Source: Nemertoderma westbladi (lineage: Eukaryota > Animalia > Xenacoelomorpha). From it: a stretch of 46,201 bases of DNA. Positions 4,230 to 46,201 of this stretch are shown here, one piece after another (within the stretch, counting starts at the first letter, position 1; each line of letters starts with the position of its first letter). The DNA is taken from contig JAUCBJ010002031.1 of assembly GCA_032718475.1 (NCBI GenBank), positions 1-46,201 of the forward strand, read 5' to 3'. The translations under genes and the position numbers were made by a program. The notes under the pieces are model-generated. The model searched no databases. It saw only the letters and a list, made by a program, of their open reading frames with translations, and had not been told where the DNA came from.

Positions 4230-4535
4230 ATGACGGAGTTGATAGAAGATGGTCTTGGTATCGGGGAGCGATATACTCTACTTTTGCAAGCGTTTGTTGA
4301 TAGCTTAATACGCGGCGACGTTAGTCCAACTGCTGCAGAGGACGATGGTCGTTATATCGAACCGCCAATGTCCCAAGAGCAGCTCGCGCGCGAGTTGGAC
4401 TATAGAAAATTCGCTGCTCGATATACGCAGCGTAATGGTACGTATATGGTCTTCTTAACTACTGGTCATCCTATCGATTTACACAATACGGACTATGTCG
4501 ACTATATATCCTGCCCAGCGGAGTCGGAACCATAA
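4230..4535 (+). CDS. Small orphan ORF (~101 aa) in the extra 3' region of BEL element 1
   Basis: ATG at 4230 within tracked ORF 4152-4535; GC-richer island; no recognisable domain. Confidence 0.3.
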   Translation: MTELIEDGLGIGERYTLLLQAFVDSLIRGDVSPTAAEDDGRYIEPPMSQEQLARELDYRKFAARYTQRNGTYMVFLTTGHPIDLHNTDYVDYISCPAESEP

Positions 4536-5638
4536 ACTGAAATTCGAATGCGAAAATTCTATTCGAAATCGACTCGAAAGAAAAGACACTAAAGAAACAA
4601 ATAAACGCGGTAACTCCAACGTATATTTGGAATTCTTGATAGAAGCATTGTAACAACAAATAAATATCACCCGCGTTTCCCCTACCAGACGTGCGTCTTT
4701 GGTATTATTACGGTAAATGCCCTAGACCCAGCCAATAAACGGAAAGACATAAACATCCACGGAAACGTTGTGTTAAACACAGTTGTGTTCGTTATATTTA
4801 CTGGAGTTTCGAGCGAAACTTGTTTGACGTATCACCTATGCTCACTCGGCTCTAACGATCCTAGAGTAAACCTACGATCAGAGTCCCGGAATACTCGGTC
4901 AAACCTCCTCATTCCTTAGTTGGACCTCAGACCTGCGATCCTGGTGGTGTCGCGGATCCTCGCGGACGGTATTCACTGTTCAAGATCTAGTGCTACCCTA
5001 ACAATTAATCGGTAACACTCCGACAGTGATTTCTAGCTAGCCGCCCATCTTACCTAGCTGGATTATGACGCAGACACCTAATATCACTATCCAACCGTAT
5101 GGTCGTCCCGTTTAACGCGATACAACCCTTCATCAAGGTGAAGGAGAGCGTTGTACGAAACGAGTTAAACGCTATTCTATAAAGATCAAAAAAGAAACCT
5201 GCGTTTGTTCAGATAAACGTAAGTTATAACAGTAAGTCCAATCGATAAACGAATTGGCCTTATCTCAGTTCGATTGGGAAACCTCGAATCTCAAAGAAGA
5301 TATCAAGCTTAGAAAACCCTATTCTCTGCGAGAGTTTTGGACGAACGTATCCCATGACAAGCGGAGGAAAATCAGCTCGAGGAGAAGCATATCGAAATGG
5401 ACGAGACACCGACCGTAAACCCAAACCTTTTAATGCAATCATATTGCACCCTTCACCCAGGAGTTATGGCCCTCCTAGTAAAGTGGCTCCCCCCAAAGAG
5501 AAAAGGACTCTTGCTAGCCTCAAAAAACTGCGTAAACGCCGTCTGCGTAAGAAAGGCTAACTGTTTAGAGTATCTTTATATTTTAGAAACTGTGATTTGT
5601 TATATTTTATAGACTTAAATCCCATTTTCTGGGAGCGG

Positions 5639-6776
5639 TGTAAAAGCTTTTGCGTAATTAGCCGGTTATTTTCCCTTAAAGTACTCTGTAGTTGGTTTGC
5701 CAGGCATAAAAAGGCCGTGTCCTTGCTGTACTGGTGTTTTAGAGGACATAAAAGTCATTTCTTATGTATTTGTACTGTATTTGTACTTTAGAGGACATAA
5801 TCCACAATCTCGTGACGCAATAGCTGGATACTTTGAAAACAGTGTCGCTACCATGACGACGGCTAGCAGCTGATATTGCCACGTCGACGTTTCTTTGTTT
5901 CTTTGTTCTCTCGTTGTTCAGGTTGACCAATCAGAGCGTTTGTTGTCTCTGTGTTGGAGGTATATACAGAAACTCAGTAGTTCAGTGTTATGTTTTTGCC
6001 CAGAGCCTAAGAACCGGCTTTTGGCACCTCCGTGTTTTCAGTTTTTAGTCTTACACTAGTAGGTTTAATTATAAGGGCATATATCCTTTAACTCATGGAA
6101 TCACTGATCTGGGAATACACTGACTGCTGACACACGGCTTTTAATAACTGCTGAAACTGCTAAAATTACCTGCTCAATCGATACTGTATACTGCTATTTG
6201 TTGTCGGTTATTCATTATATTGGTTGATGAATTATTATATTGGAATAACGAGAAATAACCCCGAAAACCCAATATTCTTGATGTACCGAAGGTAAGAGAG
6301 AAAGGTTACCAATAACGATTGTGACTTATGTTAAAGTGGTTTGAAGTGAATCTAATGTTATTTGATAGACCCTACATGAGTCAGTCTGTGTTCCTTTTAT
6401 ATGTGACTAAAATCAGTGAAGATTGGCAGATTAGTGTGCAGTATTGTGCAGCATTGTGTATGAGTGAGTCTGTTAAAGAAGCAATTCCTAAAGAATGCGC
6501 CATATATGTGAATTATAATTAAGCCATATCGTTGTGAGTAGTTTAAGTCATAACTCTGTTTATATAGATAAAGCGCCACGTCCTAAAGGAACTGTTAATA
6601 TTCCCCGAAGGTGAATAATATTGTCAGAGATTATATAATACTGTCAGTCGAATAATACATTAGGCTTACATAGCAATAAAATTAAACCGTCGAACCCAAT
6701 CTCCCGGGAATATCCAGCGGGTGAATGATCGCGCACAGATTGGTTTCGACTAGTGTAGTGAATCAAATATTTGTCA
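5639..6776 (+). repeat. Probable 3' LTR of BEL element 1
   Basis: Starts TGTAAAAG directly after GGGAGCGG, matching the GGAGCGG|TGT junction proven for element 2. End at ...TTTGTCA is a best guess. Confidence 0.55.
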
Positions 6777-14459: not shown

Positions 14460-15053
14460 TTATGATTGTTTCGATGTCATCGATAACCAGAAAGACGATC
14501 TGTTTCCTGGCATGAGATTAACAAGTTTCTTTAGGATAATCTCCTTCTTTGCTGTGTTAATTCCCCGTACACCTTCTTTCTTCTGTGGAATTTCTGGCTG
14601 ATACCTCTCTTGAAGGAATTCTACACACTTCTCTGCTTCTTTGAAGTCTCTTTTATAACCATCTTGCGACACCCTTTGTTAAATCTCACCTGGACTACCT
14701 CTGTAATATAGGGAAGCGCCTCTTTCAGCTTCTTGGAATACGTTAGTTTCTTCAACCACTTGTGGAATTCCGGGGTTAATACAACCAAATATTTTCTACT
14801 GTTGGCCATAACCATAGTGACGTATTTCAAATCATACATTGCTGGTTGTCTTTTAATACTCCTCTCTATATTTCCATGAACCGAATCGGCTAACATGTCC
14901 CTTGGTGAGGTACTTCAATGTGATTGACTGTGGCCCCCCTGTGGCATTGACAATCGCTACACATGCGCCAAAGAGCAACCGTTTTTATTTTGACCCGTAC
15001 AATTATCCAGCCAAAATATAAACTCTTTGGAATCCTGCTCTTCTCTGATGATC
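14460..15053 (-). pseudogene. Sola-type transposase, C-terminal part with frameshifts
   Basis: FIFWLDNCTGQNKN, KYLTKGH..MLADSVHGNIE, GINTAKKEII. Continues across the BEL insertion from 31811-31878. Confidence 0.8.
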
Positions 15054-16203
15054 TGTTACGGTATATGGCGCTGTATCCACAGTATTAGTCCATTATGCAG
15101 TATGCAGTATTAGTCCATTATGCAGTATGCAGTATTAGTCCGTTATACTGTACGTAATATTAGTCCGTTGTGCAGTATAATTATTTAGATAAGGCGCAGT
15201 GTGGTGACATTTAGGTAAGGAAGTTAAAACGCCCATATATTTTGCATCCATTCATTTTGTATAGTATGTAGCCCTACCTACGTAATTTTGTATTAGGATA
15301 TATGTAGATAGTTCCAGGGTAGCGAGTTTACTCGGACCCTGGATTTTGTGCTTGCTGATATTAGTTTGATAGGGCTAGCATATAGGGACGCTGTCCTGGC
15401 CATTCAGCAGCCAGAGACGTGATCCATTACCATATATGGTAATAATTTGAGGGCATAGGGCTACAATCTGGTCTCCTTATTGGATTAACTGCTTCCAGGT
15501 TGGTTTAATGCTAGCATGGACTGGAGAGCCAATGGGAGAGCGATTGAGTCACCTTATTGCATCACCCCATCCGGATCACCTATAAATTGGCGGTGTGCCG
15601 GTAGGGCCTTTGTTGTTCATATATTTGTTCATATGTTCATGCTTTATCACATGACACACCCCTGTTACAATTTACTTGCTGAGCTGTCTCTAATTTTGTA
15701 TTAGGATATCGTATTTTCTGCAATTTGCTAATTTTGATTAATTTCTTGGAATGATTTACTAGTGCGATTACTTTGCTTGTGTTTCTCAATAATTCCTTCG
15801 ATTACTGCAAATTACAATCGAACTATGATTTCTACCTTTGATTGATGGTTCTATGTGATTCTTTTCTGCGCAATAATCCCAAGGGATTCCTGAGACTGTC
15901 AGACTTTGTGATTTGCATGCGCCGCTACGGTAGCTATTAGCATAATGAAGGGCTAAGGTGCCAGTGGGCGGTGGGCACATCGGGGGGTTGAGCGACTAGG
16001 GAGAGCGGAGGATTCAAAAGCGGGCGACGCTGGCGGGGGTCAACGTTGCGGTCGGGCGATTTGGACTGTAGGTTGGAGACCGCTCGCTGGTACAGTAATT
16101 AGGGGGCTGATGATCCAGGTTTTGTCTCTATTTAGTATTAGGGGGCAGGAATTGGGTTAGTTAGGAAGCCTAGATGTACCCGGGAGGGGCCTGCATACCT
16201 TAC

Positions 16204-16234
<31 letters not shown>

Positions 16235-17252
16235 TGCGAGTAAGTAGATTGCGAATTAGTCAATTGCGAATTATTATGTTGCGAATTATATAATTGCAGA
16301 TTGTATAATTGCAAGTCGTGCTATTGTGATCTGTGATTGCTGACGCTGATTGGTGTGTTACTAAAGTGTGCCTATGATTACGAATGCTTAGATAGGCGCT
16401 CTTTTCCCTTTGATTGATTCTATCTCTTAGTTTACCGTAAATAATTACTGATTAGGTCAAAGTAATACAGTATTTTAGGCTGTTACATATTTGTGACTGT
16501 AATTAATTAGTAAAATTAAGAATTAGTACGCAGCATAGCGGAGAGTAGCTAAGGTAATAATTTAGAGTACCGTAAACTATTCACGCTAAGCGGTTATTTG
16601 CATTAGCGGGCAATAAGCTAGATCGCAGTAGTCAGTACGCAAGACACTAGTAAGTTGCTGGCCTAAAGCCAGCTGCAGGCAAGTTTAGACCCAGAGCGGT
16701 ATCACCTACGAAAGACATTGTACTGTACCAATTTTGATTATTTTAAATATTCTCGCATTCACACATTCCGTTAGGGAACCCTCAGTATTCGCGATTAGAA
16801 AAGACGTAAGCATTGGCGTATTTCAGTAGTAAAATTAGGCGTAAGAATATACTCTGAGTGCAAAGCCCCTCGCACTCGTCTTAAGTAAGCTTAGGGAGCC
16901 GACTCGGGTTTATTGTTTTGGTTATTCCCGCGTGGCTCATAGATTCGAACAGTTAGCTCTCTATCGAGCGATCGGTAGAGAAAGGAACAAGCGATTTTGC
17001 AGGAGTTGTGTAAATTTAGTAAAATATATTAGCGGACGGCAGATTAGCGCCATCCAACGGTAAGTAGCGGTTTTGTATTTAGCAACCCTTACAATTTAGT
17101 AATAGCACACTCCTGATCCCCTTTACTTAACAGTAGAGCAGTCTTTGTGTCTTATTGGTTAGGCGAGAGCTCATTAGGTTGGCAGAGAGGTATACGGGTA
17201 TTTGTCTGTTCAACAGTTCTGCTGTTAGTATAGGTGTCGCGGTTGTTTATCA
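15054..17252 (+). repeat. 5' LTR (2199 bp)
   Basis: Matches 29612-31810; the only mismatch noticed is G16770 vs A31328. Contains 25-bp tandem units near the start and (GTAA)n at ~16205-16233. Confidence 0.97.
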
Positions 17253-18358
17253 GTAAGGTATGTTTTGTTTGCTGTAGGCTGTAGCGTACAGTAGAACATT
17301 GAGTATATTCTTTTAGGCTGCTAGTTTAGATTACTGTATTCACTGGTTGCGTACGATAGTACAGTAGTACATTAGGCTGATTGCTGTTACTGCGTACGGT
17401 AGAAGGACATTTGTTTGCCGTACCACACACACAGTATCATTAGGCTGTTAGGTTGGTGTACTGTTTTACTTACTGTACTGCGTACAGTGGATGTACGGTA
17501 GTGCGTTTTTACTAATTGCGAATGCAGCAGTTCCTTACACCTTAGGCCTTAGGGCAAATTGTAATTAGTAAGTTTTTTGAAAATTTTAGCTAGGTTTGCG
17601 AGAATTCAGTTTCGGTCAAAATTATTTGTAAAATTCTAGAGTTTTGTACCGGTATGTTAGGTAACCGCTTAGTTATTTTATACCATCTGGAGATACATGG
17701 CAAGACGGAACTTCTGAGTTTGGGGTTCGTGTGGGTCTGCGGGTTCGGTTTGCAATCAGCGAAGGGCCTGAATCTTTGGACGCGGACGTGGAATCTCACA
17801 GCAAACAAGGTTAGTTGTTCTGTTGGCACCGGTGTGTTTGTGGAAGCAGTAAAAAATTATCGGTTGTTTAACTGCGAAGCTGAACTCAATTTATTAGTTA
17901 GGCTGTTAGGATATTTAGGTTTAGCCGGCCATGGTTTTTTGAATCGCTCAAGTTAGAGAGAGAGTTAGAGAGAGTCGCAACCCGAAGATGTAGCCACGCG
18001 CTAGTGGATACATATAATATTTGAAATTAAAATTACGTTGATTAGAGCTATATATAAAATTAGAAATATTCGGGCGGCAAGTTTATTTTGAATATTTTGT
18101 ATTAGATTCAAAGTTATTTTGTGCTATACCGGTATTTAATACTATATAGTAGCTATATAATAATATTTTTGTTTAAATATTGTGCTAGTATTTGCTATAA
18201 CTATACCCCATTAAATTCACAATATTGCATTGCGAATTTATTTGACATTTGGACCAACTGATTATTTGACAATTAATTTGACCGTATTTCGGTTAAATTA
18301 TAATTATATCTCGAACTTTTGCGAGATATTTTGCCGGAAGGCAAACATTATTTAGACT

Positions 18359-21300
18359 ATGAGTGTCTCAGACAAAGAGGCACTAGAGGACAGCTATGAG
18401 ACGGCGGCTGGACCGCCGACTGACGATAGCGTAAATATTACTGTTGATGACAATGCCGACTATGACGACGCAGCGAGCGACGCTGACGTAAGTGAACAGG
18501 AGGACGAGACAGTGACTAGTGAGGAAGAACAACAACCTCAAGTAATAGTATTAGGATCCCCTACCGCTACTGTAAGGAAGGATTGTACAGCAACCCGGAC
18601 AGAGGTGAGTGATAGGGAGGGTAGTGTAGCAGAAGCGAGAGCCCGGAGCCCGGTTTCCAGACCTGTGGGTATGGTAAGTGCCGTGGTCCCGACGGCTGTA
18701 AGGAGTACCCGTAGTTCCCGAAATAATCCTTCAAGTCCACCGAGTGTAAGTCAGGTAAGTGATAGAGAGTTCGACATCGCGATAAAGAAGAAACTTCGCG
18801 CGCATGCCGGACATATAACTCGGACGGCGGACAAGGTAAGGAAGATGTTAGCTGATTCAGCCAACATCGGGAGGGTAGAGTTAGTAGAGATTAGAAGATG
18901 ATATAACTCAGCGTTATTCAAGCAGACGGAGGAGCTTGCAGTCCTAGCGAAGAAGGCAGTAGAGTCTCAGTCGAGCGACGTGGCGACGAGGATTTACGAC
19001 AGGGTTTTAGCAGCCTTGTTGGAGCACCGCGAGTTATCGGAGCAATTCCGACGAGTTAGGACGGAGAACTGGCTGCTACGGACATCACAAGCGCAGGCGA
19101 CTCAAGTGAGTGACGCAGAGTTGAGAGAGTTAGTGGAGCGAGAAGAGATCCAAGACAAGGAGGAGCGCAGGTATCAAAGGGAAGTTACTAGCTGGCTGAT
19201 GCAGAATGGAGTGGTGGTACCAGGCCAGGTGCTACCGACGACGGAGAACATCCAACAGAGGACGTTGACTCCACCCGACGACGCATCCAGAGACAGCGGC
19301 GATTCCCAGGTTAGTCACGCGCGAGGGAAGGTTATTTGTGCTAGATCCCTTGTTTCTCACAACTCGGCGGAGGAGAGAAGATGCCAACTGGACGAACAAC
19401 AGGCGGAAGTTTTGCGTGCATCGGAAGCACGGAAGGAAGCCGAGCGGGAACGGGAGCGCACACGTAAGTTAGACGCAAAGTTGCGAGAGTTGGAAGAGAA
19501 AGGTAAGCGCGAGCAAGCGGAACGCGAACGCAAGGAACACGAACTCAAGCTTGAACGCGAACGCAAGGAACGCGAACTCCAGCTCGAACGCGAACAAAAG
19601 GAATATGAACTTCAACTCGAACACGAGCGCAAAGAACGCGAACTCGAGATCGAGAAGGAGCGACGGGCGTTGTATGAAGAGAAGGCGCGGGTGGAAGAAG
19701 AGAGCGCAGCGAGACGAGCGAGGGAAGAAGAAGAACGTAAACTGGCGCAGTTGGAAAGTGCGAGATTAAGTTTAGAGAGCGAAGAACGGACTAGGAAGGC
19801 GAATGAAATCGCCGAGAAGGGGATGCGAATGATCGAAGAATGTGGGGCGAGTGTAGGGACCGAGTTGCGAGAACTGTTCGCACTGCAGAAGGCCGAACAG
19901 GAAGCGAGAACTCCGACCATACGCGAGTCGACGACGACCAGAATTCCTATACCCGGTCCAGCTATTACGAGTACACGGATCGCTAAACCATTCTCTACAT
20001 ATCGCACGCCAGTTGGTATTAGTGCTTCACCTATCGCGCAGAATCCACGGCATCAGAACACCGCACCACTATACACCGAACGCGACAACGAAGAATTTAG
20101 AGAAGAAACTCCGACGGGCCGAGTATTGGGCGAACCGAACCCGCGGGTTTGGAATATGCGGACGGAGCGCCGACCCAGTTCGACGGAGAACTTCCGGGTT
20201 AAACCGGAAGAGGGATCATATGAGAGACAGCGGATTACTCAGATAGAGCCGACTATACAACAGAACCCTAGCCAGGAATTTATTACGAGGGATGAGTTAA
20301 GTGCTAGTTTAGCGCAAGCTATATCGCCGCACATCCAACCTATAACGGACATGCTTAGCAACCTACGGTTAAAGGAAGCAGCCCAGGTAAGAAGTAATTC
20401 TAATCCTAGCAGGCCTGAGTTAGATAAAGTCCAGCCTAGTCAACGAGTACGCATATCGGAGGAGACTATACCACATAGACCTCAGGTAAGGACGCCTGTC
20501 CCGAATATTCATAATCCCAACTTCGAAAATTCGGCCGAGAAATTTATTGAGGAGGCTTGGATCAGGGCCTCGGCGCGCAAACCATCGCGAGCGCTAAGGA
20601 CTGACACCGAGTCAAGCGATGAAGAGGAAGAAATGAGACGTCAGAAGTCCCGAAACTATAAGGAAAGAAGGACGGACGCGGAGCAGGTAAGTTGGAACCA
20701 CCGGGAAAGGACCAGACTTAACAACCCTGCGGAACTAAACCATTTGTTAACCCGGAACGACGCAACCCTTAGGGACATAGGTAAGTTTGCTGCTAGGCAA
20801 GGACTGCCGACGCAACAACCCCAGAAGTTTATGGGCAACCATAAGCACTGGAGGACCTTTAAAACCTATGTCGACGAGCAGCTAACCAACAGCACCTTTA
20901 CTCCCAATGAGAAGTTCAACTATTTGCTTCAAATGCTCCATCGAGAACCTAGAGCGATTGCTGATAACTTCGTCGGCAATGAAAGAGCATTCGAGTTAGC
21001 GATGAAGACGCTTAGCGACATCTACGGGAATAAAACCAAGATGGCACAGTCGATAGTAGAAGACTTGGGTAAGGGCGGAAGGATTACAACTCCGTTAGAG
21101 CTGTTGAACTTAGCGAACGCTATTTCGAACGCATTGGACATCTTGAGGACGGTGAATCTACCTCATCATGGTGATCACGCCGAAGTTTTGAAAAGCGTAA
21201 TAAGACGTTTAAACATGCGTTACCGACAGAAATGGCGCAAATTAGAGAATAAGTTGGAGGGCCAAGGTAAAGTATTGACACTTCAGCATATTCATGACAT

Positions 21301-24300
21301 GATAGCCACAGACGCAGTAGCAGAGATGAAATCAAACTTCTCAGAGGAGAATATGAGGGAGTCTAAACCTGTTACCGGTAAGTCTATGGTAAGTTTTGAC
21401 GATGATAGGACCACTGTGACTTATAACTCAGTAGACAGATATAATTCGAGTACCCCAGCCTTTAGATCAGACTCGCGAGTATGGTCAGGTGAGCGGTTAG
21501 ATAGACCTAGGTTAAAGCAACAGGAGTTGCCGGATGGATTTGCAGGTTGCCAATACTGCTTACTAAAGGAGGTAAGATCTGACGACCATAAGTTAGATAG
21601 TTGCAGACGGTTCAAGGAATTAAATTCGGAACAGAGAAGAGTTCAAGTGCGGACGTTGGACACCTGTTGGGCTTGTCTTGCGCCAGGACATGTACGGCGG
21701 CAGTGCCCGAACAGCAAGGACGGATGCATGGAATGCGGCAGACTACATCACAAGTTGCTACATGCGGATTTCCATACCCCAACGGACCGTTACTTACAGC
21801 GAAATCCTCAAAGGAAGGGGAGCAAAGAACCCGTATCGATAAGGAGGAATACGTACACTGGCATCCAGGACGATGGTTACCAACCAGGTTCGTCGGACGA
21901 GGATGGCGAGTCGAGCGCGAGAGAAGTGACCTGCCAAGGTTTCACCGCGGATAGTTCATCGACCAGCGCGCGGACGTATTTATCATCGGCCACGTCGGAA
22001 ATATTTAGCGTGATTCCGGTGAAACTCACCGGCGATAAGGGATCGAAGAGAATATATGTGATGTTGGACACTGCGTCCACATTATCGTATATCGACGAGG
22101 AAGTGGCGAGAGCTGTTTCTAGCTTCCAGAACGCTGAGGAGATCCAAATAGAGTTGAAGTCTATGCACGGGGTAGGAGACCTCAAGGGACACAGAATTTC
22201 GGTAGAACTAGATTCCCTACTTCCGAGAGACCAACACACTCGACAAGAACGGAAAGCTTTGCCATTGGACGGATTTAAGTGTCTAGCTATGAAGGGATTC
22301 GGCAGGCAATTAGGTAAGGTGCCGCCGATGAGTCCCATAGCACAGGAGTATTTTGACAAGCTCAGGATACCCAGACATCAGGTAGGTTATAGGAATGTTT
22401 CTATGTTGATTGGTGCAGAACAGCTGATCGCACACCAAATATGGGAAACGAGACCAGCTGAGCCGCATGTCAATGGACCACATGCCCATAGGACTATATT
22501 AGGTTGGTATACACGAGTACCCATGTCTTATGAGTTTACAGGTGGCGACAAGCCAATAGACAGATACGACGAATTACAGCCTATAACTCAACCACCGTTA
22601 GTAGAACCACCAGACATAGACGAGTTTAGGAGAACCTGTATTGACCACTATAGTGACTTTAGCGAGTCAGACGAGGAGTTGATTCCCGATAATGTTAGGT
22701 TGTCGGAACCACTTCATAATGACCGGACAGATAGTGAACCCGAGGACTACTGTTATCAGACCCGTGGGTCTGGTTCAGCGGCCCACACTACCTATTTGAC
22801 TAACGTTTTGACTTATACTGACATAGTGGAGGGTCAAGTGGCTAAATATCGAGACCTAGACATTTTCCAATACAGTGAGGAGGAATTACAGAAGGAATTG
22901 ATACGCCAGGACCTCGAGACAGGAGCCAGAACCGTCGAATGGCTGGATAGGGACGCAATGGAACCCGGTGGATATGACCTAGCCATGTCTACTGATGAGA
23001 AACGGTCGTTGGAGATGATGGAAGATACCATACGTCTACTACCGACTGGACATTTTGAAGTTGGAATGTTGTGGCGTCGACAACCACCTAAGTTGGAGAA
23101 CAACTACAACTTAGCCTTGAAAAGATTGAACGGAGTAAGGGCTCGGTTGTTGAGGAATCCAGGCATTAGGGAGAAGTATTGCGCCCAGATCAACAACTAT
23201 TTCGCCAAGGGATTTGCTGGGAAGGTAGAGGACCCTGACTTAGTGACAGACCAGACTTATTACCTTCCACACCACTATGTGACTCACCCTGACATGCCAG
23301 ACAAAGTCCGAGTAGTCAACGACTGCGCAGCAGTCTATAGAGGTATGTCCCTGAATTCAGAGTTGATGGATGGTCCCAACCTGAATAACTATTTGATTGG
23401 AATACTGTTGCGTTTTAGACAGCGGCGATTCGCATTTACTTGTGACATCGAGGCGATGTTCCACCAGGTAAGAGCCTGTAAGGCAGACCAGGATAGCCTT
23501 CGCTTTCTCTGGTATGAGAATGAAGACTTATCTGGCCCAGTGGTTACATATCAGATGTACGTTAGGATATTTGGCGCCCGCGATAGTCCGAATGGCACGC
23601 TGTTTGTTCTAAAGAAAACGGCAACAGCCCAGATTGGTAAGTATCCAGTAGAAGTAATCGAGTCTATATTGAGAAACTTCTATATGGACGACGGATTGGT
23701 GTCCAAGGACACGGCGGAACAAGCCATAGAAGTGGCTCACGGCCTGCAGGAGTGCTTGGCTACAGGGGGTTTTCCTCTAACCAAGTTCACTACAAACTCG
23801 GAGGCCCTATTAGAATCGTTCCCGGTAAAAGATCGCGGGAGCGGAGACATAGAATTGGGGGTAGAACCAATTCCCATGGCGCGAGTACTGGGACTCGCTT
23901 GGAATCCGAACTCAGATAAGTTCCAGGTAAGAGTTAGATTTGAGCCCAGTAGCCCAGACAAAGTTTTGACTAAGAGGATTTGCTTATCGACATTGAGTAG
24001 ACTATTTGACCCGATGAACTTTATCAGTCCGGTTATATTACAGGCACGAGCGTGCATGAGGAAAATTTGGTTGTCCGACTTAGAGTGGGACGAACCAATA
24101 TCTCCTATACATGCAAAGCAGTGGAGGGAGTGGGAAGCCGAGTTGCATCTATTGAAAAATATAGATGTACCCCGTTCCTACTTTCCGAATCAGCTGGTAT
24201 TTCCAGCTGATCTCGAACTCCACTTATTCAGTGACGCAAGTGACACCGGCTTTGGTATGGTAGCCTACCTTCGCCGAGAGGTAAGTCAGGACAAATTTGA

Positions 24301-25237
24301 GACGGCCTTTGTGACTTCTAGATCAAAGACAATGCCGGTCAAATACATGACTGTCCCTCGTGCAGAGTTACAGGCGGCTGTAGTTTCGGTCGAGGTAAGT
24401 AAACAAATAATTGAGGAGTTAGACACGACATTGACCTTATTCTATTGGACGGACGCATCCTTGGTGTTAGTATACATTGCGGCCGACAATATTGCACTAA
24501 AGACATTTGTGGCCAATAGACGCGCTCAGATCGTTGATTTTTCGACGAAGGAACAATGGAGACATTGTCCGGGAGTGTTGAACCCGGCCGACATAACTTC
24601 GAGAGGTGCAATGCCGGCGGAATTCTGTCGGGAAGAGTCGCAGGAGTTTTGGTTGCATGGACCTGATTTTCTAACGAGGACACAGGAACATTGGCCAGAG
24701 CGACTAAAGATAGTGACCAATCCGATGCCTGAAGATGCAGAAGTCAAAGTGGAGAAAGTCTCTAAGTCGAAGTCTAAAGCCAAACTTAAGTCATTGGAGC
24801 GGCCTGAAGAGTCATTGGAGCGGCCTGAAGAGTTATTGGAGCGGCCCGGAGACCTGTCAGACCAACAGACTTACGTGACTACTAGGTCAGGAAGGGTAAG
24901 TTACGACGTAAAACCGCCCTTACAGACTAAACCGGAGTCACAATTGGTAAGTGACGGACAGAAAATGACCGACACAATGGATCCTTTGGTTTCCAAACCT
25001 GCGGGTTTGGATTCGAAACTTCCATTAGTTAGCGGACAACCGTCGCTGGCATTAGAGTCATGCAGTGTTTATGACAAATTACTAAATTCGTCTGCCTCTT
25101 GGCTGATAATTTGTAAAAGAACTGCGTGGTTAAGCCGATACGTTTCGTACCTTTGTATAAAATATTCGAAACATTTGAGAGAACCATTGAGCACCAATAG
25201 TGAGCGAATTCGGAAATTGAAACAACCTCTGACATAG
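18359..25237 (+). CDS. BEL Gag-PR-RT-RNase H polyprotein with one in-frame TGA at 18899-18901
   Basis: ORFs 18359 and 18980 share a frame. Coiled-coil E/R/K region, QKFMGN Gag, three knuckles, MLDTAS protease, YYLPHH, DIEAMFHQ, NFYMDD, LFSDAS, FYWTDA, NPADITSRG. Confidence 0.92.
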
Positions 25238-26621
25238 GATGAGATTGATCAAGCGGAATTAAAGCATTTGAAACATTATCAAATGTGTGCCTTCCCGAAA
25301 GAATTCTATCTATTATCGGCTCAACGACCAACCCGATAAGGGTTTGATTTGTCATAGATCGAGAATCCAGACTGTCGACATAAACTCACAGTTTAGGTTC
25401 CCAGTGATAATCCCTAGTCACCCGATAGAATTGCAAAGAGCGATTCTATGGGATATACACAAGAGGTTGCATCACGCGGGAAGGTTACACTGTCTGTCGG
25501 CAGCGAGACAGCGATTCATTCTATTGCAGCCAAGCAGGGCAGTAGGCACTATGTACGACGCCTGTCTGGTTTGCAAGAGGGTGAACGCCAGAGTATTGGA
25601 ACAGGAGATGGCTGAACTCCCGGAAGCGAGAGTGCAGGCATATGACCCACCCTTTACGAACACAGGGGTGGATTGTTTTGGTCCGATTGAAGCAAAGAGT
25701 GGACGGCTGACCCACAAGCGATGGGGTCTGCTACTGACATGTATGGCGAGTAGAGCCATACACATTGAGCGTGTGGCAGACATGTCGACCAAATCTCTGC
25801 TCCTGGCCTTAAAGAGATTTATGGCCAGGAGAGGACTAGTAAAGGCGTTCTACTCTGACAAGGGTACAAACTTTGTCGGAGGGAATAGCGAGTTGAACGC
25901 GGCTCATAAAGCAGCACAGAATAAGGAAATTTCTGCAGCACTTTTGCCGCAACGAGTAGAATGGAGATTTAATACTCCAGAAAGTCCTTGGAGAGGAGGA
26001 AGTTGGGAGCGTTTGGTTCGCTCTGTGAAGCAGGCCATTGCCAAAACATTGCCTGTGAACAAACAACTTACCGACGACGAACTGGTCACAGCTTTCATTG
26101 AAATCGAGCATACCCTAAACTCGAGGCCGATAGCTATGTTGCCAGACGGTGTTGCATTAACGCCGAATCATTTGCTAATGCAGAGTCCAGCATTTCTTGT
26201 GCCGGCATCAGAACCCATTAGTGCCGACCTATATAGTCGTAAAAGCTGGAAAGTAACACAGTTTGTGGCGTACACATTCTGGGAATATTGGCGGGAATAC
26301 TATCTTCCCACCATATCCACCAGAACAAAGTGGTACAAAACGGTTCGGAGTCTCCAAAGGGGAGATTACGTATTGATAACCGAACCGATTGTCAAGAGAA
26401 AGTATTGGGAGACTGGAGTGATCTTGCACACACACCCAGACGTGCAAAACATAGTGCGCACAGTCACTGTGAAAATTAGGTGCAAGTGTCCGCACCCAAA
26501 GAAGTGTAAAACTAATGGTTTACACACCTTGGACCGACCAGTCCAAGATATCGTGTTATTAGAGGAGACACGTATCGAGACGGGAGATTATAATTTGTCT
26601 CCTGCCTCAAAACAGAATTAG
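25238..26621 (+). CDS. BEL integrase, cut off from Pol by a TAG and a frameshifting deletion near 25300
   Basis: After the TAG the frame reads DEIDQAELKHLKHYQMCAFPKE, then shifts to KNSIYYRL. HHCC zinc finger (IHKRLHHAG...CLVC), GVDCFGP, SDKGTNF, GGSWER, LNSRP. Confidence 0.9.
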
Positions 26622-26731
26622 TGTTGGACGCAACTCACTTCGTATGCATTCCTCGTATGCAAATACAAGGAAATGCATAGGAGCGGGGTTGTGGTGATTT
26701 GCGTTGAGTTTTGTCTGGTGGGTATCAAAAC

Positions 26732-27080
26732 TGGTAAACAACCGCGACACCTATACTAACAGCAGAACTGTTGAACAGACAAATACCCGTATACCTCTCT
26801 GCCAACCTAATGAGCTCTCGCCTAACCAATAAGACACAAAGACTGCTCTACTGTTAAGTAAAGGGGATCAGGAGTGTGCTATTACTAAATTGTAAGGGTT
26901 GCTAAATACAAAACCGCTACTTACCGTTGGATGGCGCTAATCTGCCGTCCGCTAATATATTTTACTAAATTTACACAGCTCCTGCAAAATCGCTTGTTCC
27001 TTTCTCTACCGATCGCTCGATAGAGAGCTAACTATTCGAATCTATGAGCCACGCGGGAATAACCAAAACAATAAACCCGA
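26732..27080 (-). repeat. Internal inverted copy of the terminal 349 bp of the LTR
   Basis: Reverse complement of 16904-17252 (and 31462-31810) with 3 mismatches seen. Confidence 0.95.
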
Positions 27081-27723
27081 CCACGGGTATTGTGGGAAAA
27101 TTAGAAAATTTTAAAAAATTAGAAGTGAACCCAAGACAATTCCAGACGCTGTGTATAGACGCGTTTTTGAATTCGTCTATAGATAAACAGTAATTCAAAA
27201 GTCGTGAAGCCTGGAAAATAGCATTTAGAAACCATGGTGACGGCTATATTACGTAGGAGTGTAAATTGAGTTTAGCAACTTCCACAGATTGGTGCCAACA
27301 GTGCAACTAAGGTGCTAAAGGTTAGTAGCACCAGAGGCGTACATGGACCCCACTCAGTAGTTTGCAGGATGTGTGATGTTCGATTATCAAACCTGTGGGT
27401 TTGGTATAGTCGAGTATTGTGGCTATGGTCCTTTCTAACTACTGTAGTTTAGTACGAGTAATGGGAGTAGTTTGGGCATCAAAAAGTGAGTTGGTCACGG
27501 CCAGTTTATCTCCAAAGTTTTTGCGCTATGCATGGGAATAGGTTAGAGGATAGTTAGTTAGGAAGAGACGGGATCTAGAGAGTCGAACCTGAACTGCTGG
27601 AAGGCAGCTGGAAGGGGGGTTCGGGAAGTCTGTCCTTCGGCGACATCTAACTGATTACCCACGGTGTAATTGGTTTGCGTAACGGAACACTTATTGGGAT
27701 ATATATGTATATACGCGGGCATA

Positions 27724-28792
27724 ATGGAGAAGGATATTAGAGCGCAACCGTGCAGAGGATTTACTGCCAGAGAGGAGGCGGAGTTACCATTCGCGCGACC
27801 GGGATGTAAAGATTCGAACGTTTACTACCATGGGCGGTCGGTGATGGAGCTAAATGGGAAATACAAACCCACGATTCCCGACCGACTAGACGAGCAACAT
27901 CCAGAACCGATATTAACGCGATGTCAAGCTCACCAGTTCCTTAGATATAACGAGGGAGGTTACCCGATGAGCAACCCGATGATCAGTATCGACTTCAGCG
28001 GAAAGCGACCTCCGAGACCCATTACGCCGACCGTTACAACATTAGATCCGTATACGGAGATTAAACATGTTCGACACCCGCTTTGATAGACACGGCGGCG
28101 GCCATTTCGCTATACCGAGCCTATAAAGACCTAGAGGCGCGGCGCGAAGCGGCACGGGACTCGAGTTCCTGGACCACGTTCACTTCGCTTCACCAGGAAA
28201 GGAAGGTCACGCCTGAGTATCCAGACGAGATTCGCGCAGTCCATCCGTCTACTAACCATACCCACGATCCGCGATTTATACGATATTTACTCCAAATTAT
28301 TTCGGGAAGTTTCGACGAACGCATTATTAAGCCCGAATATGTCCAATCCTTTATATATCATCGTCGCTCTGATATATACGTCTAGAATTATTACCCAGCG
28401 CACAATTGGCGGCCTAAGGAGACTCGTTTGGGGTCATTGACCTCTGAACGAGTGGAGGATCAGGACCGCCGCGCCCACAGCGACAACAGCCGGAGCTCAC
28501 AGCTCGCGGCAAGTACCAGAAGGAGGAGTCCTTGGCAAGCGTCAAGCCAAGGACGAGCAGTCCCATTCTACTGTTGAAGAAAGAGGAGTTGGCGGAGGCG
28601 CCCACAGGGACACGACAAATGGGACGAGGCCGAGGGAGGAGCACCAGTCGGGAGATAGTCGGTGCCCAGGGAACGTCGTCGCCGGTTCCGGGAAGTGACG
28701 CCTCAAGGACGCCGTCAACAGAGTCTACAGGGGGTAGACTGGTGTATCTGGAGAAGGGAGCGAGCCCGAGAGACCCAGGAGCTAGCCGATGA
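27724..28792 (+). CDS. Cluster of small orphan ORFs (27724-28086, 28083-28385, 28532-28792) in the env-like position
   Basis: GC-rich island of consecutive plus-strand ORFs; first two overlap at TTGA; no recognisable domain or transmembrane segment. Confidence 0.35.
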
Positions 28793-29603
28793 GACTATAA
28801 TATCACGGAGCGACAAACTCTAGACATATACATCATCGTCGCTCTGATGTATATCGTAGGTTTGATAAACATTCGACTGGACTCATATACACTAGTCGTA
28901 TCCATGTTTTAGAATTTTATTTTCGAAGGCCAAAAATATTGAAAGTAAATACTTTAACTTTGTAGTCCGATTGGAAATAGTAAATACTTTAACTATATTT
29001 GATTTTGTGTATATGACTTTATTTGCTCTAAAGTTTATTGAAAGAGGCAAAGGAAATGATTGGGGAGACGAACCCGCGGGTTTGGCTTACTCCTTTCACT
29101 TACCTGAGCAATCATCAAACCAAGATGATTTGCGTTTTTTATAAGAAATTAAGTAAAGTCCGAAAATGAAAGAAATTATTACGTATTTTATATTTAGTTT
29201 GATTATCGGCCTTTAATGCAATTTAGTTAAAAATTTAGCCTCAAATACGTTTATATTTAGTTTATCTTGTTAATGTTGATCGTTAATTGAGATGGGAAAT
29301 GGGGGACATTGTCCTAGCCATGTTCCATTTCAATAAGTAGATCGTTAATTTGTAAATAAATAAAGGAAGTAATATTTTTGTAAATTTAATTTGTATGTAG
29401 TAATCATTATGTAGTAAGAATGAACGAGAAACAATATTTTGTAAATTTAATTTGTATGTAATTCATTATGCAATATCTATAGCAATATTTGTAAATAGTA
29501 GAATTATTGTGTTATTTAGATTAGTTGGAAGAAATTTATTTTGTTTTGTATACATCACCTTATACTCTTCTACAATTGGAGGGAAACATTATATGATTTC
29601 CCT

Positions 29604-29611
29604 TGGAGCGG
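29604..29611 (+). promoter_or_regulatory. Polypurine tract (TGGAGCGG) abutting the 3' LTR
   Basis: Directly precedes TGTTACGG at 29612. Confidence 0.8.
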
Positions 29612-30761
29612 TGTTACGGTATATGGCGCTGTATCCACAGTATTAGTCCATTATGCAGTATGCAGTATTAGTCCATTATGCAGTATGCAGTATTAGTCCG
29701 TTATACTGTACGTAATATTAGTCCGTTGTGCAGTATAATTATTTAGATAAGGCGCAGTGTGGTGACATTTAGGTAAGGAAGTTAAAACGCCCATATATTT
29801 TGCATCCATTCATTTTGTATAGTATGTAGCCCTACCTACGTAATTTTGTATTAGGATATATGTAGATAGTTCCAGGGTAGCGAGTTTACTCGGACCCTGG
29901 ATTTTGTGCTTGCTGATATTAGTTTGATAGGGCTAGCATATAGGGACGCTGTCCTGGCCATTCAGCAGCCAGAGACGTGATCCATTACCATATATGGTAA
30001 TAATTTGAGGGCATAGGGCTACAATCTGGTCTCCTTATTGGATTAACTGCTTCCAGGTTGGTTTAATGCTAGCATGGACTGGAGAGCCAATGGGAGAGCG
30101 ATTGAGTCACCTTATTGCATCACCCCATCCGGATCACCTATAAATTGGCGGTGTGCCGGTAGGGCCTTTGTTGTTCATATATTTGTTCATATGTTCATGC
30201 TTTATCACATGACACACCCCTGTTACAATTTACTTGCTGAGCTGTCTCTAATTTTGTATTAGGATATCGTATTTTCTGCAATTTGCTAATTTTGATTAAT
30301 TTCTTGGAATGATTTACTAGTGCGATTACTTTGCTTGTGTTTCTCAATAATTCCTTCGATTACTGCAAATTACAATCGAACTATGATTTCTACCTTTGAT
30401 TGATGGTTCTATGTGATTCTTTTCTGCGCAATAATCCCAAGGGATTCCTGAGACTGTCAGACTTTGTGATTTGCATGCGCCGCTACGGTAGCTATTAGCA
30501 TAATGAAGGGCTAAGGTGCCAGTGGGCGGTGGGCACATCGGGGGGTTGAGCGACTAGGGAGAGCGGAGGATTCAAAAGCGGGCGACGCTGGCGGGGGTCA
30601 ACGTTGCGGTCGGGCGATTTGGACTGTAGGTTGGAGACCGCTCGCTGGTACAGTAATTAGGGGGCTGATGATCCAGGTTTTGTCTCTATTTAGTATTAGG
30701 GGGCAGGAATTGGGTTAGTTAGGAAGCCTAGATGTACCCGGGAGGGGCCTGCATACCTTAC

Positions 30762-30792
<31 letters not shown>

Positions 30793-31810
30793 TGCGAGTA
30801 AGTAGATTGCGAATTAGTCAATTGCGAATTATTATGTTGCGAATTATATAATTGCAGATTGTATAATTGCAAGTCGTGCTATTGTGATCTGTGATTGCTG
30901 ACGCTGATTGGTGTGTTACTAAAGTGTGCCTATGATTACGAATGCTTAGATAGGCGCTCTTTTCCCTTTGATTGATTCTATCTCTTAGTTTACCGTAAAT
31001 AATTACTGATTAGGTCAAAGTAATACAGTATTTTAGGCTGTTACATATTTGTGACTGTAATTAATTAGTAAAATTAAGAATTAGTACGCAGCATAGCGGA
31101 GAGTAGCTAAGGTAATAATTTAGAGTACCGTAAACTATTCACGCTAAGCGGTTATTTGCATTAGCGGGCAATAAGCTAGATCGCAGTAGTCAGTACGCAA
31201 GACACTAGTAAGTTGCTGGCCTAAAGCCAGCTGCAGGCAAGTTTAGACCCAGAGCGGTATCACCTACGAAAGACATTGTACTGTACCAATTTTGATTATT
31301 TTAAATATTCTCGCATTCACACATTCCATTAGGGAACCCTCAGTATTCGCGATTAGAAAAGACGTAAGCATTGGCGTATTTCAGTAGTAAAATTAGGCGT
31401 AAGAATATACTCTGAGTGCAAAGCCCCTCGCACTCGTCTTAAGTAAGCTTAGGGAGCCGACTCGGGTTTATTGTTTTGGTTATTCCCGCGTGGCTCATAG
31501 ATTCGAACAGTTAGCTCTCTATCGAGCGATCGGTAGAGAAAGGAACAAGCGATTTTGCAGGAGTTGTGTAAATTTAGTAAAATATATTAGCGGACGGCAG
31601 ATTAGCGCCATCCAACGGTAAGTAGCGGTTTTGTATTTAGCAACCCTTACAATTTAGTAATAGCACACTCCTGATCCCCTTTACTTAACAGTAGAGCAGT
31701 CTTTGTGTCTTATTGGTTAGGCGAGAGCTCATTAGGTTGGCAGAGAGGTATACGGGTATTTGTCTGTTCAACAGTTCTGCTGTTAGTATAGGTGTCGCGG
31801 TTGTTTATCA
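29612..31810 (+). repeat. 3' LTR (2199 bp)
   Basis: Direct repeat of 15054-17252, followed by TSD TGATC. Confidence 0.97.
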
Positions 31811-31878
31811 TGATCCTTAACATACAATCGGCCAATGAGTCAGCATCCCGACCTTGCAGCCCCTCATGCCACACCACA
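31811..31878 (-). pseudogene. Sola-type transposase fragment upstream of the BEL insertion site
   Basis: Reads VVWHEGLQGRDADSLADCMLRI and continues in frame into IREEQDSKEFIFWLDNC once one TSD copy is removed. Confidence 0.8.
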
Positions 31879-33437: not shown

Positions 33438-36400
33438 CTATCTGGCGAGTCTCCAGAAACTGACGGGTCTGAGGGAGCAGTCGAGTCTCCAGAGGCTGTC
33501 GGGTCTGAGGGGGCGGTCGAGTCTCCAGAAACTGTCGGGTCTGAGGGAGCGGTCGAGTCTCCAGAGACTGTCGGGTCTCAGGGGGCGATCGAGTCTCCAG
33601 AGACTATCGGGTCTGAGGGGGCGGTCGAGTCTCCAGAAACTGTCGGGTCTGAGGGAGCGGTCGAGTCTCCAGAGACTGTCGGGTCTCAGGGGGCGGTCGA
33701 GTCTCCAGAGACTGTCGGGTCTGAGGGGGCGGTCGAGTCCCCAGAAACTGTTGGGTCTGAGGGAGCGGTCGAGTATCCAGAGACTGTTGTGTCTCAGGGG
33801 GTGGTCGAGTCTCCAGAGACTGTCGGATCTGAGGGAGCGGTCGAGTCTCCAGAGACTGTCGGGTCTCAGGGGGCGGTCGAGTCTCCAGAGACTGTCGGGT
33901 CTGAGGGGGCGGTCGAGTCCCCAGAAACTGTTGGGTCTGTGGGAGCGGTCGAGTATCCAGAGGCTGTCGTGTCTCAGGGGGTGGTCGAGTCTCCAGAGAC
34001 TGTCGGATCTGAGGGAGCGGTCGAGTCTCCAGAGACTGTCGGGTCTCAGGGGGCGGTCAAGCCTCCAGACCCTATCGGGTCTGAGTGTGCGATCGAGTAT
34101 CCAGAGACTGTCGGGTCTCAGGTGGCGGTCGAGTCTCCAGAGACTCTGCATACTGCATCCCATACCTCACCAGATGTGCCAATTATATCTCATGTCACTG
34201 CGAACTTATTGCTATATAATGCACGTAGTCTCCTCAATCTACACAGACGTAAAAGTTTAGCAAATTTAATTTTATTACATAATTATTGTATATTGTGTAT
34301 AACTGAAACGTGGTTAACGACTGATATCCTAGATAGTGAATTGTTTTTCTCAGGTTATAATTTAGTACGTACCGAGCGCGAAGTGAGTGAGAATGGGGTG
34401 TCTTCTCATGGTGGTGTCCTTATTGCAATAAAATCTGGGATTAACTACACCACGGAAGAGATCCCGGGTGCTTCTAAAACTCTTGCATCATCTGTTGCGA
34501 TTTGTAAGTGCAATTTTAATGCTTGGCGTTGTTTAATTTTGTGCATATACAACCCCCCTGAAAAGAGCCCATATCGCTTACCCGTTACAGACTTCTTCAC
34601 ACTATTTGAATACATACAATCGTGGAGAAGTCGTGTTGACGAAATTATTTTATGTGGAGATACTAATCTGCCACTAATAAATTGGGAATCACATTTTTCA
34701 GCTGACGATTATGAAAAGTCAATCTTATCTTTTATTGATAAATACAACCTTAAACAGCACGTAACATTCCCTACTCGCGGTACTAATACCCTTGATGTTT
34801 TTATCACACTTACTGATACTACAGTTCTCAATACGGAAGTTGACAATAATCTTACCAGACAGTTGAATGCATATCAAATCAAATCGGATCATGACCCTGT
34901 CGTCTGCTTATTAGACCTACGATCTGTGAAGAGCACACAAACACAGCGCGAATATGATTCACATACGATGGTATATTACAGTTTTTGCAAAATCGACGTA
35001 CTGAAAGCAACTCAAGTTTGCGCCGCACATCCATTTGTGTTAGAATATCCTATAGTAGATAATGTGGTGGATTATGACTTGATTATTGAAAAGTGGTACA
35101 AATGGATATATAAAGTAATTGACAGTTGTGTACCAAAACGGACCATCCACAGGGCATCTCAACCACCATGGATTTCACAAAAAACATCCCACAAATTAAA
35201 ACAGCTACATACAGTACAACGGAAAATCTCTAAATATAAATCACCTGCACTTACATTACAGATGAAATTTGATCAACTCCAAAAAGACATTGAAAGTGAC
35301 ATTATAGAAGATCAAGCGCAGTATGAGACACGCCTTTCAAACTCGAGATCGATGAAACACTTATTTAAATACTTTAAAAGTCTCCGCAGATCATCACAAC
35401 TACCACCAGTTTTGCATTACAGAAATCACATTGCCTCCACGGACATTGAACAAGCTGAGCTTTTTAATGCATTTTTCCAATCTGTCTTTAAAACACCTCG
35501 ACTACCTACTAGCAAGGTCTCCCCTCCAATTGATATTGTTGATCCCCCTAACTTCACAACGTCCAGCAACTATGATGTATCGGTAGAGACCGTGGAGAAT
35601 ATTCTGTCCGCTCTTGATGTTACTAAATCCCGAGGACCAGATAATATTTCGCCTGGGTTTCTTAAATCGTTAGCGAAAGTCCTTGCACCTTCTTTGTCTA
35701 CAATATTTAAAATACTGAAAAAAGTCAACTATTTTCCGATTTTGTGGAAACATGCGTTAGTAAATCCCCAACATAAAAATGGGAGTAAAATTAAAATAAT
35801 TTTATACCGTCCGATTTCACTTCTCGCAATCCCAGGGAAAGTATTCGAACGGTGTATATTCATTGCGGTATATGAACAGGTGAGGGAGCGACTACACAAC
35901 GCCCAGCATGGCTTTAGAAAATGTAGATCAACAATTACACAACTTCTTATTTTTTTGGATAATGTATATAAAGGTATGGATGATGGACAGTTGGCGGTGG
36001 AGACAGTTTACTTGGATTTTCAAAAAGCATTTGACTCAGTTAGCCACGAATCCCTACTTAAAAAGTTGTGGAGAATAGGAGTACGAGGAAATCTCTGGTA
36101 TATTATTCGTAGTTATTTATCTGGAAGAACTCAATCTGTAAGGGTTGGCAAGGCGACATCCACCGCTAGAGACGTAGCTAGTGGCATGGCTCAGGGATCT
36201 CTCCTGGGCCCCCTGCTTTTCCTCATCGAGGACAATGACCTCCCAGAAGTCTGTGGTGTCAGCATTCCTTATCTTCTCGCAGATGACTGTAAATTAATGT
36301 CAATATCACCGATAAACGATACGATAAACACCCAACTCGATATTGATCAACTTGTTACTTGGGGTCTGGAAGCCGGATTAGAATTTAATGAGTCGAAGTG

Positions 36401-40250: not shown

Positions 40251-40915
40251 CTAAACTTGATAAAGTCTTATTTATGTAGGGATGCCATATACAATAACTT
40301 AAATAAATATAATAAATCCAGTATAGAAGTGAGAAAAGGTATATTATTTCTTAAACAAATTAATTATTAGTGATATACCGGCAATACAAACAAGATCGTT
40401 ATTATTTCTATATTACAAATCGTGATGAAATTTATTGTATGCAATAATGAATAGTATTTCTGTGTTTTTAATTAATTTTTTATTTTATTTATTTATTTGA
40501 TTCGCTTTTAATGTCACAGTTTTTATAGATTAATTTTAAAGTGTGAACTAATAATGTAATTTTAATCGAGTTCAGGATATTAAATGAAAGTAAATACGCT
40601 TCTTGTTTACTAATAATGTAAATTAATACATTTTTTGTTTATAACCGCGCCCTTGACATGAATTATGGTTTATTATGAAAACATGTAAAACATTATACAT
40701 TATAAAGGCACAGGTGGAAGGAAGACTAGAGTAGCAGCAGTGCACATAACATAGTTAGCTAGCAGTTAGCAGAACCAGCAACAGTGGCGTGGTGGGAACA
40801 AGTGAGGGGCCCGGGAAATCCCAAAATAAGGGCCCATTTATAAATGCCAGACCACCTATAATTTTGACCACCCCCCCCCCCCCCCATCATCATGTATAAA
40901 ATATTTCTTGAATAA

Positions 40916-46100: not shown

Positions 46101-46147
46101 TTTTCGCTTTTTTCTTTTCTCTTCCTGGAACCACTTTTACATGACAT
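43124..46147 (-). CDS. hAT transposase, two exons (46147-43559, 43318-43124), apparently intact
   Basis: WLSYS..MYCSVC and HE..HH zinc finger, GNFLEL, LMIDSTQD, FDGASNM, CYSHVLNL, TRW. Intron CAG|GTAATG...TATCAG|; exon 2 VCCERVFSQLKLILTRLRSTL (catalytic E / dimerisation domain). Confidence 0.9.
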
Positions 46148-46201
46148 TGTTATTATTTGAATTAAATTAAATTGGCAGATATCCAACAGTATAATTAATA
46201 C

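Follow-up and report, generated by a model that had tools for sequence, protein, structure and literature searches.

Sense-strand 5' splice-site motifs crowd the gag-pol gene of an oversized BEL/Pao element and may act as U1-binding sites without splicing

The major splice donor of HIV-1 suppresses polyadenylation in the 5' long terminal repeat (LTR) through the U1 small nuclear ribonucleoprotein (U1 snRNP). We describe here a retroelement that carries not one donor-like motif but about twenty, in the coding sequence of its gag-pol gene. The element, which we call element 2, is a BEL/Pao LTR retrotransposon in a 46,201-nucleotide stretch of DNA from Nemertoderma westbladi (contig JAUCBJ010002031.1, positions 1 to 46,201), the whole of which is referred to as the window; features lie on its plus strand unless stated otherwise.

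Several described systems resemble this locus in part. In foamy virus, U1 at the major donor is reported to suppress 5' LTR polyadenylation; it is likewise a case of U1 binding by a retroelement, independent of splicing and in favour of full-length RNA, but there a single donor stands next to a single poly(A) site, within the LTR or close to it (PMC3694450). Element 2 differs in having about 20 motifs in 6.3 kb of coding sequence, at a cost in codons and residues and without an identified target poly(A) site. A strong 5' splice site is reported to block Restrictor (ZC3H4-WDR82) independently of splicing, Restrictor itself being active within several kb of the start site (PMC12211998), and in Drosophila RNA containing transposable elements (TEs) is guarded from Su(s) (Su(s)-Wdr82) by a consensus 5' splice site (PMC4691828). 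In both, a strong 5' splice site guards a transcript with no need for splicing, as these reports describe it for host genes and reporters and close to the promoter (PMC12211998, PMC4691828), whereas the array of element 2 is encoded by the element and runs the length of the gene. Also alike is the purine-rich coding sequence that SAFB binds in L1, Tigger and LTR elements, with a host RNA-processing motif throughout the open reading frames (ORFs); that motif is a GAA-rich enhancer of many families and is reported to suppress the element (PMC10901741), whereas the motif of element 2 is a donor consensus that most BEL families avoid. Finally, Cer1 of C. elegans is an LTR retrotransposon whose genomic RNA has splice signals and must leave the nucleus unspliced, with a few defined exons leading to an export protein (PMC10309623); element 2, by contrast, shows no acceptor excess, and any splice product of it is putative. 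Both the use of U1 by retroelements and the tuning of motifs in TE ORFs are already known (PMC10901741, for the latter). For a gene-long donor array that reverses a family-wide avoidance we found no earlier account in the literature matches listed: no title or opening abstract among them concerned donor-motif enrichment in a retrotransposon ORF, most subscription journals and supplements being outside that coverage.

An exact-word count of positions 18359-25237 finds 20 GGTAAG on the plus strand, at 18673, 18754, 18835, 19502, 20386, 20485, 20686, 20780, 21068, 21377, 21388, 21571, 22313, 23467, 23636, 23926, 24280, 24394, 24895 and 24946. Eleven are GGTAAGT. An earlier sequence-only reading of this DNA had put the number at about 20, about half of them GGTAAGT, and the 11 coordinates it quoted are the GGTAAGT subset. 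It had also expected about 2, in agreement with codon shuffles of gag-pol (mean 2.33) and with Markov models of orders 1-2 (1.9-2.0); keeping both protein and codon usage in synonymous shuffles raises the mean to 4.83. None of 2000 shuffles of either kind reaches 20. Markov orders 3 and 4 expect 7.0 and 15.6, their sub-words being inflated by the motif itself. In a dicodon-preserving shuffle, which covers codon phase 0 and does not reach phase 1, 14 GGTAAG are seen against 8.1 expected, with none of 2000 shuffles as high. Among all 4096 hexamers GGTAAG is the most over-represented in gag-pol (Poisson p 2.4e-7) and beats the best hexamer found across 500 null shuffles (p 1.3e-5). The motif excess is thus confirmed as a strong, real sequence signal that persists under the codon and dicodon shuffling which the sequence-only reading had proposed for both strands.

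The excess is confined to one strand and to one word. Antisense GGTAAG is absent from the interval (about 1.0 expected), which bears out the earlier impression that the reverse complement is rare. Both usable codon phases are enriched, phase 0 with 14 GGTAAG against 3.1 (0 of 1000 shuffles) and phase 1 with 6 against 1.7 (1 of 1000); in phase 2 the word would be a stop codon. When pairing is counted against the U1-complementary consensus, gag-pol of element 2 holds 19 sense sites with at least 8 contiguous U1 pairs (5.6 expected) and 1 antisense. None of the 18 one-mismatch neighbours of GGTAAG is comparably enriched in element 2, GGTGAG standing at 2 against 2.5.

A second element in the window shows the same excess. 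Element 1, a distant BEL/Pao ORF at 1-2577, has GGTAAG at 331, 546, 687, 1065 and 1764 and GGTGAG at 768, 1507 and 1848, just as the earlier reading had it, making 8 GGTRAG against 1.6 expected (0 of 2000 shuffles). Its protein is 23% identical to that of element 2 over gag and protease. It is without reverse transcriptase (RT) and most of RNase H, an 858-codon frame staying open across the deletion, and is likely a non-autonomous derivative. In the 30 GGTRAG sites of the two elements, position -2 is A in 22, position -3 is C or T in 19 and position +6 is T in 18; the extended motif, (Y)AG|GTAAGT, is the donor consensus.

The protein bears the mark of the motif. Recurring QVS, EVS and QVR peptides had been noted before, and 10 of the 16 [QEK]V[SR] tripeptides in gag-pol are indeed spelled GTA-AGN behind a codon ending in G, while 6 of 9 GK dipeptides are spelled GGT AAG. 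Valine is written GTA in 19 of 27 cases ahead of an AGN codon and in 37 of 112 elsewhere. At four of five motif sites in RT/RNase H, different residues stand in most of the 39 homologues aligned. Both the codons and the residues chosen appear to be shifted toward the motif, given the GTA bias before AGN, the spelling of GK and the different residues of the homologues. In a related copy on three contigs of a sequencing run, X1, none of 33 differences, out of a table with 71 more, falls in 11 motif windows; with 1.5 expected, this says nothing either way about conservation.

Other genes do not share this pattern. The LINE (long interspersed nuclear element) ORF1, the non-repetitive LINE ORF2, the hAT ORF and an ORF at 38955 (about 8.2 kb together) hold a single GGTAAG. 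The integrase ORF of element 2 has none, as the sequence-only reading had observed; this is low next to the roughly 4 expected at the gag-pol rate but not significant against its own shuffles (0.07-0.38), and GTRAG is at 0 against 3.3 (24 of 2000 shuffles as low). For comparison with the BEL group at large, we took the best 80 of 527 confirmed metagenome matches, of which 77 with an ORF of at least 300 codons formed 49 clusters; 48 of these clusters and 7 of 8 genome-contig loci make up 55 control families, which come from probably few hosts and are not independent. The cluster representatives have 22 sense GGTAAG against 60.5 expected and 67 antisense against 61. Across the 55 families, sites with at least 8 contiguous U1 pairs number 39 against 84.9, with a median of 0 and a maximum of 0.73 per kb, compared with 2.76 per kb in element 2, 2.72 in element 1 and 1.59 in a third enriched family, L046 (each 0 of 300 shuffles). 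The genome-contig search gave 8 BEL loci, 7 with ORFs and none enriched, and scans of viral contigs for relatives found none. In ordinary BEL ORFs (L001-L087) donor avoidance is limited to the sense strand, and AAAA and TTTT runs are avoided too. The excess thus neither disappeared under shuffling nor was matched in unrelated ORFs of the window, and the control BEL families are depleted. Selection at the nucleotide level for a U1-complementary motif is well supported by the sense-only excess in both usable phases, the donor context, the near-absence from LINE and hAT ORFs and the depletion in control BEL families. To that extent the earlier proposal of embedded U1 sites stands; the purposes it gave for them are conjectural.

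L046 has 10 GGTRAG against 3.7, eight of them in AG|GT context. Its terminal repeats lie about 6.8 kb apart, and the very long RNA that had been offered as the reason for such sites is not needed. At L046:6750-6810, TTTGCAG|ATG looks like a strong acceptor, with the LTR AATAAA following about 45 nt downstream, an arrangement resembling a terminal exon. We looked for further cases with a peptide proxy ([QEK]V[SR] plus GK[SFYLCW]) on 366 proteins of at least 1000 aa. Seven reach p<0.001 and 13 p<0.01, two of these being cluster duplicates; the proxy is noisy against DNA, where of 75 loci L046 is top and four without DNA excess score similarly. A FastTree tree was built from 107 RT/RNase H sequences, element 2 and 106 of 110 chosen proteins (three short matches and one without usable hit were left out). 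All seven members of the L046 clade (support 0.995) have proxy values of 2.07-3.54, next to 1.27 for the sister P0156. A second group, P0092/P0091/P0206, scores 2.44-3.26 (support 0.996), and element 2 sits elsewhere, beside mostly unenriched elements. At one aligned site of the L046 clade, GK is found in five proteins and EVS in two, with GR in the sister (DNA for L046 only), so either codon phase can spell the motif there.

Repeated origin of the enrichment across BEL lineages may be indicated but is only a lead, because the high-scoring clades were sampled by searches starting from the top scorers. It is conceivable, though we would put it below an even bet, that several BEL/Pao lineages separately reversed donor avoidance and built U1-site arrays into gag-pol, amino acids being chosen for the purpose, as an element-encoded counter-defence against termination surveillance of intronless RNA. 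There would then be at least three parallel groups (the window elements, the L046/P0101 clade and the P0092/P0091 clade), detectable by their QVS, EVS and GK peptides alone.

What could the motifs do? They are not ordinary introns, because the gag-pol frame stays open across every site and keeps the order of its domain motifs, and acceptors are at expectation. In element 2, element 1 and L046 alike, acceptor-like sites and CTRAY match expectation (counts of 7 against 8.2, 24 against 23.8 and 21 against 20.3), by a crude acceptor score that single real acceptors could escape. Acceptor depletion was not found either, a dip in TTTCA failing to generalise. X1 contigs (26 on 17260-29600) show 4 joints, none GT..AG; their RNA origin is only guessed and they give no evidence on splicing.

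The reading we favour, and hold tentatively, is that the gag-pol motifs are selected U1-binding sites that act without splicing and guard the nascent RNA from early termination. The roughly 20 sense motifs in the stretch that codes for gag, protease, RT and RNase H would recruit U1 snRNP of the host while the RNA is being made, and stay unspliced; U1 occupancy would keep RNA polymerase II elongating, and the intronless transcript would thereby be shielded from early termination and decay by a Restrictor/Su(s)-type pathway, by cleavage-polyadenylation or by Integrator. Such a reading starts from the observed excess, its strand and frame pattern, a consensus that matches U1, the lack of an acceptor excess and the avoidance in control BEL families. 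To these we add, by inference, selection through codon and amino-acid choice, U1 occupancy, absence of splicing and an anti-termination benefit, the last on the precedents of Restrictor, Su(s) and foamy virus.

A number of results weigh against protection from termination. Gag-pol contains few poly(A) hexamers that would need suppressing (AATAAA 1, ATTAAA 1; A[AT]TAAA 2 against 2.9), although weaker variants are present, and positions 25238-29611 hold one site with at least 7 U1 pairs despite AATAAA at 27070 and 29355. The classical telescripting that the sequence-only reading had in mind therefore finds little to suppress in the ORF, and the integrase and 3' untranslated region, with their two AATAAA, are nearly without sites. 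Spacing of the sites is random (coefficient of variation 1.01, largest gap 1154 nt) and gives no even coverage. The sites reach about 9 kb from the inferred start, beyond the promoter-proximal zone of Restrictor, and L046 is ordinary in length with half its sites in integrase. If U1 pairing were at work, -2 and +6 should compensate for each other; in element 2 they do so at borderline significance (p 0.059), and in the pooled sites not at all (p 0.43). Nor are the motifs especially accessible (unpaired 0.42 against 0.38, p 0.63). In human reporters 5' splice-site motifs are described as causing nuclear retention and decay via U1-70K and ZFC3H1, which would be a cost (PMC9074902), and a 2026 paper attributes intronic poly(A) suppression to competition with splicing and not to splicing-independent telescripting (PMC13322065). 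Moreover, all the precedents are mammalian or fly, and U1 occupancy of the element's sites is predicted.

One alternative is that the motifs are real alternative donors giving rise to subgenomic RNAs, whether gag-only, coding for an export protein or some accessory one, or non-coding and restraining element activity. Cer1 makes CERV from a spliced mRNA in this manner (PMC10309623), there are acceptor-like sites at 24365 and 25529, and both window elements have a 3' region of 2.5-3 kb with short ORFs. In the alignment, four of five comparable L046 sites also fall no more than 10 columns away from a site of element 2, where 1.0 would be expected (P 0.006, post hoc), but linkers common to both, together with the QV[KR] conserved in RT, may account for this, and the sites of elements 1 and 2 are not co-located (2 of 8, P 0.32). 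No single acceptor could be joined in frame by all twenty donors, which occupy two phases, and neither acceptors nor branch-like words are enriched, so we consider this explanation doubtful. We find it rather unlikely, too, that U1 binds the unspliced RNA with nuclear retention as the selected effect, for packaging, regulated export or somatic damping. Retention would need neither nearby poly(A) sites nor even spacing, matching the few poly(A) hexamers and the random spacing; U1-70K and ZFC3H1 are reported to keep mRNA with 5' splice-site motifs in nuclear speckles (PMC9074902), autonomous transposons to carry coding-sequence motifs for the host suppressor SAFB (PMC10901741), and the 3' ORF of element 1 at 5249-5557 ends in a run of basic residues. 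Yet in the human system retention is accompanied by decay (PMC9074902), most BEL families avoid the motif, and an export factor was not found among 9 short ORFs searched against Pfam at E 0.001 or with 4131-4532 searched against Atlas.

RanBP2-type zinc fingers such as ZRANB2 bind AGGUAA, and GGTAAG might be read by such an RNA-binding protein, by the element's own Gag or by an oriented DNA-binding factor instead of U1. Only the exact word is enriched in element 2 (GGTGAG and other near matches are not), as a non-U1 factor would have it, but the next letter is G in 13 of 14 AGGTAA, A is missing from -2 in 7 of 20 sites, the preferences for T at +6 and a pyrimidine at -3 track the U1 5' end, element 1 and L046 do use GGTGAG, and the strict strand asymmetry speaks against most DNA factors; we regard such a factor as improbable. 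The earlier proposal that the motifs evade silencing of intronless transcripts, letting the element pass as intron-containing and escape HUSH-like chromatin silencing, is not supported and seems very improbable. HUSH is reported to silence intronless mobile elements, but in the same report the protection by an intron persisted after deletion of its 5' splice site and a spliced stuffer between splice sites gave none (PMC8770142). The least probable explanation, which we hardly credit, is chance, codon usage, codon-pair bias or protein constraint. Site 23467 does fall in the conserved RT peptide HQV[RK], and GTA and AGT are the most frequent Val and Ser codons; against this, synonymous, codon and dicodon shuffles give 0 of 2000 each, GGTAAG survives correction over 4096 hexamers, the excess recurs in element 1 and L046, and the homologues differ in residue at four of the five RT/RNase H sites.

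The carrier of these motifs spans 15054-31810 (16,757 bp) between direct matches of a 5-bp target-site duplication, TGATC, at 15049-15053 and 31811-31815. The 5' LTR (15054-17252, 2199 bp, TG...CA) has one difference from the 3' LTR (29612-31810, 2199 bp), found by repeat comparison. It has TATAAA at 15581, from which a start site is predicted, and no sense AATAAA or ATTAAA. A (GTAA)n array at 16205-16245 contains 8 GTAAGT words, mostly with 7 contiguous U1 pairs, and might play a part as well; it is present in both LTRs (3' copy 30763-30803), about 600 nt past TATAAA, and donor-like words in the LTR show no excess (9 against 5.6 in shuffles, maximum 13). Directly behind the 5' LTR, where the primer-binding site is expected, we read a donor-like AAG|GTATGT (17253-17265); no TGG start of a tRNA primer site was seen behind 17252 in 17253-17275. 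The first part of gag (18359-18901), with GGTGAG at 18604 and GGTAAG at 18673, 18754 and 18835, ends in an in-frame stop at 18899-18901. The gag-pol ORF (18902-25237, 2111 aa) follows with DUF1759, Cys/His knuckles, protease LDTAS, RT YMDD and RNase H FSDAS (Peptidase_A17); it contains 17 GGTAAG and a GGTGAG at 21488, spread from 19502 to 24951, and its stop precedes integrase. The integrase ORF lies in another frame at 25272-26621 (H2C2, GVDCFGP, SDKGTNF, GGSWE, DUF5641) and has no donor motifs. The copy is young by its LTRs, yet broken at two places. Despite LTRs differing by one base, the stop at 18899-18901 and the stop and frame change at 25235-25272 could be damage or recoding.

Just past integrase, starting at the LTR terminus, an inverted 351-bp copy of the LTR 3' end (26730-27080, minus strand, 99% to 16904-17254) places AATAAA at 27070 on the sense strand. 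One X1 contig of the related copy departs from the window sequence at 26731, so the inverted copy is probably specific to this copy, and we set it aside as a family-wide feature. An autointegration or a template switch, for instance, may have produced it as a rearrangement private to this copy, and in the RNA it could base-pair with the 5' LTR portion. At 26680-26700, behind integrase, a second GGAGCGGGG followed by TGTGG resembles a junction of polypurine tract (PPT) and LTR, possibly a central PPT or the remnant of another LTR. The long 3' region (27081-29604) has short ORFs, AATAAA at 29355 and no sense sites with at least 7 U1 pairs (4.8 expected). Between it and the 3' LTR stands a PPT-like GGAGCGG (29605-29611; 7 nt with one C), the same word standing ahead of TGT at 5631-5640 in element 1. 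A long 3' region holding TATAAA and short ORFs is common to both elements (2578-5640 and 27081-29604), the sole likeness between the two being 11 residues at E 0.24. The nine short ORFs gave no Pfam match at E 0.001 and 4131-4532 gave no Atlas hit; the element 1 ORF at 5249-5557 ends in lysine and arginine.

Element 2 resembles BEL/Pao (Belpaoviridae, Semotivirus) in domain order, Pfam families, LTRs and target-site duplication. DUF1759, Peptidase_A17, Integrase_H2C2 and DUF5641 are present, with LDTAS, YMDD, FSDAS and the integrase motifs in order; all homologues listed have BEL-type Pfam families, and the closest database relatives among the matches listed are marine-invertebrate BEL polyproteins of at most 43% identity (about 43% for the best). 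The profile of the International Committee on Taxonomy of Viruses (ICTV) gives a genome of 4.2-10 kb, LTRs of 0.2-1.2 kb, a PPT of about 10 nt and an 18-nt primer-binding site for tRNA-Arg or tRNA-Gly (PMC8742986). At 16.8 kb with 2.2-kb LTRs, element 2 is outside this typical size, which is a descriptive range; its tRNA primer site is not evident, and donor motifs are enriched where relatives avoid them. On domains and tree we file it as an oversized BEL/Pao element. Elsewhere in the window, two 36-bp tandem arrays lie in open frame (33438-34260, the start of the LINE ORF2 frame, and 40912-42996, a 694-codon repeat ORF), and a hAT-like transposase ORF (DUF4371, zf-C17orf113; 43550-46201, minus strand) is open at the window end.

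Strong donors should be disfavoured in retroelement RNAs that remain unspliced, and the 55 control BEL families indeed avoid them. Elements in which they build up in coding sequence suggest that positive selection can favour unspliced U1 sites over the length of a gene, and offer a natural experiment on U1 protection without splicing, which is now disputed (PMC13322065). A simple sequence score allows whole TE libraries to be screened for the hosts and clades involved. The finding points to a conflict between host and transposon in an invertebrate, over either transcription termination or nuclear retention.

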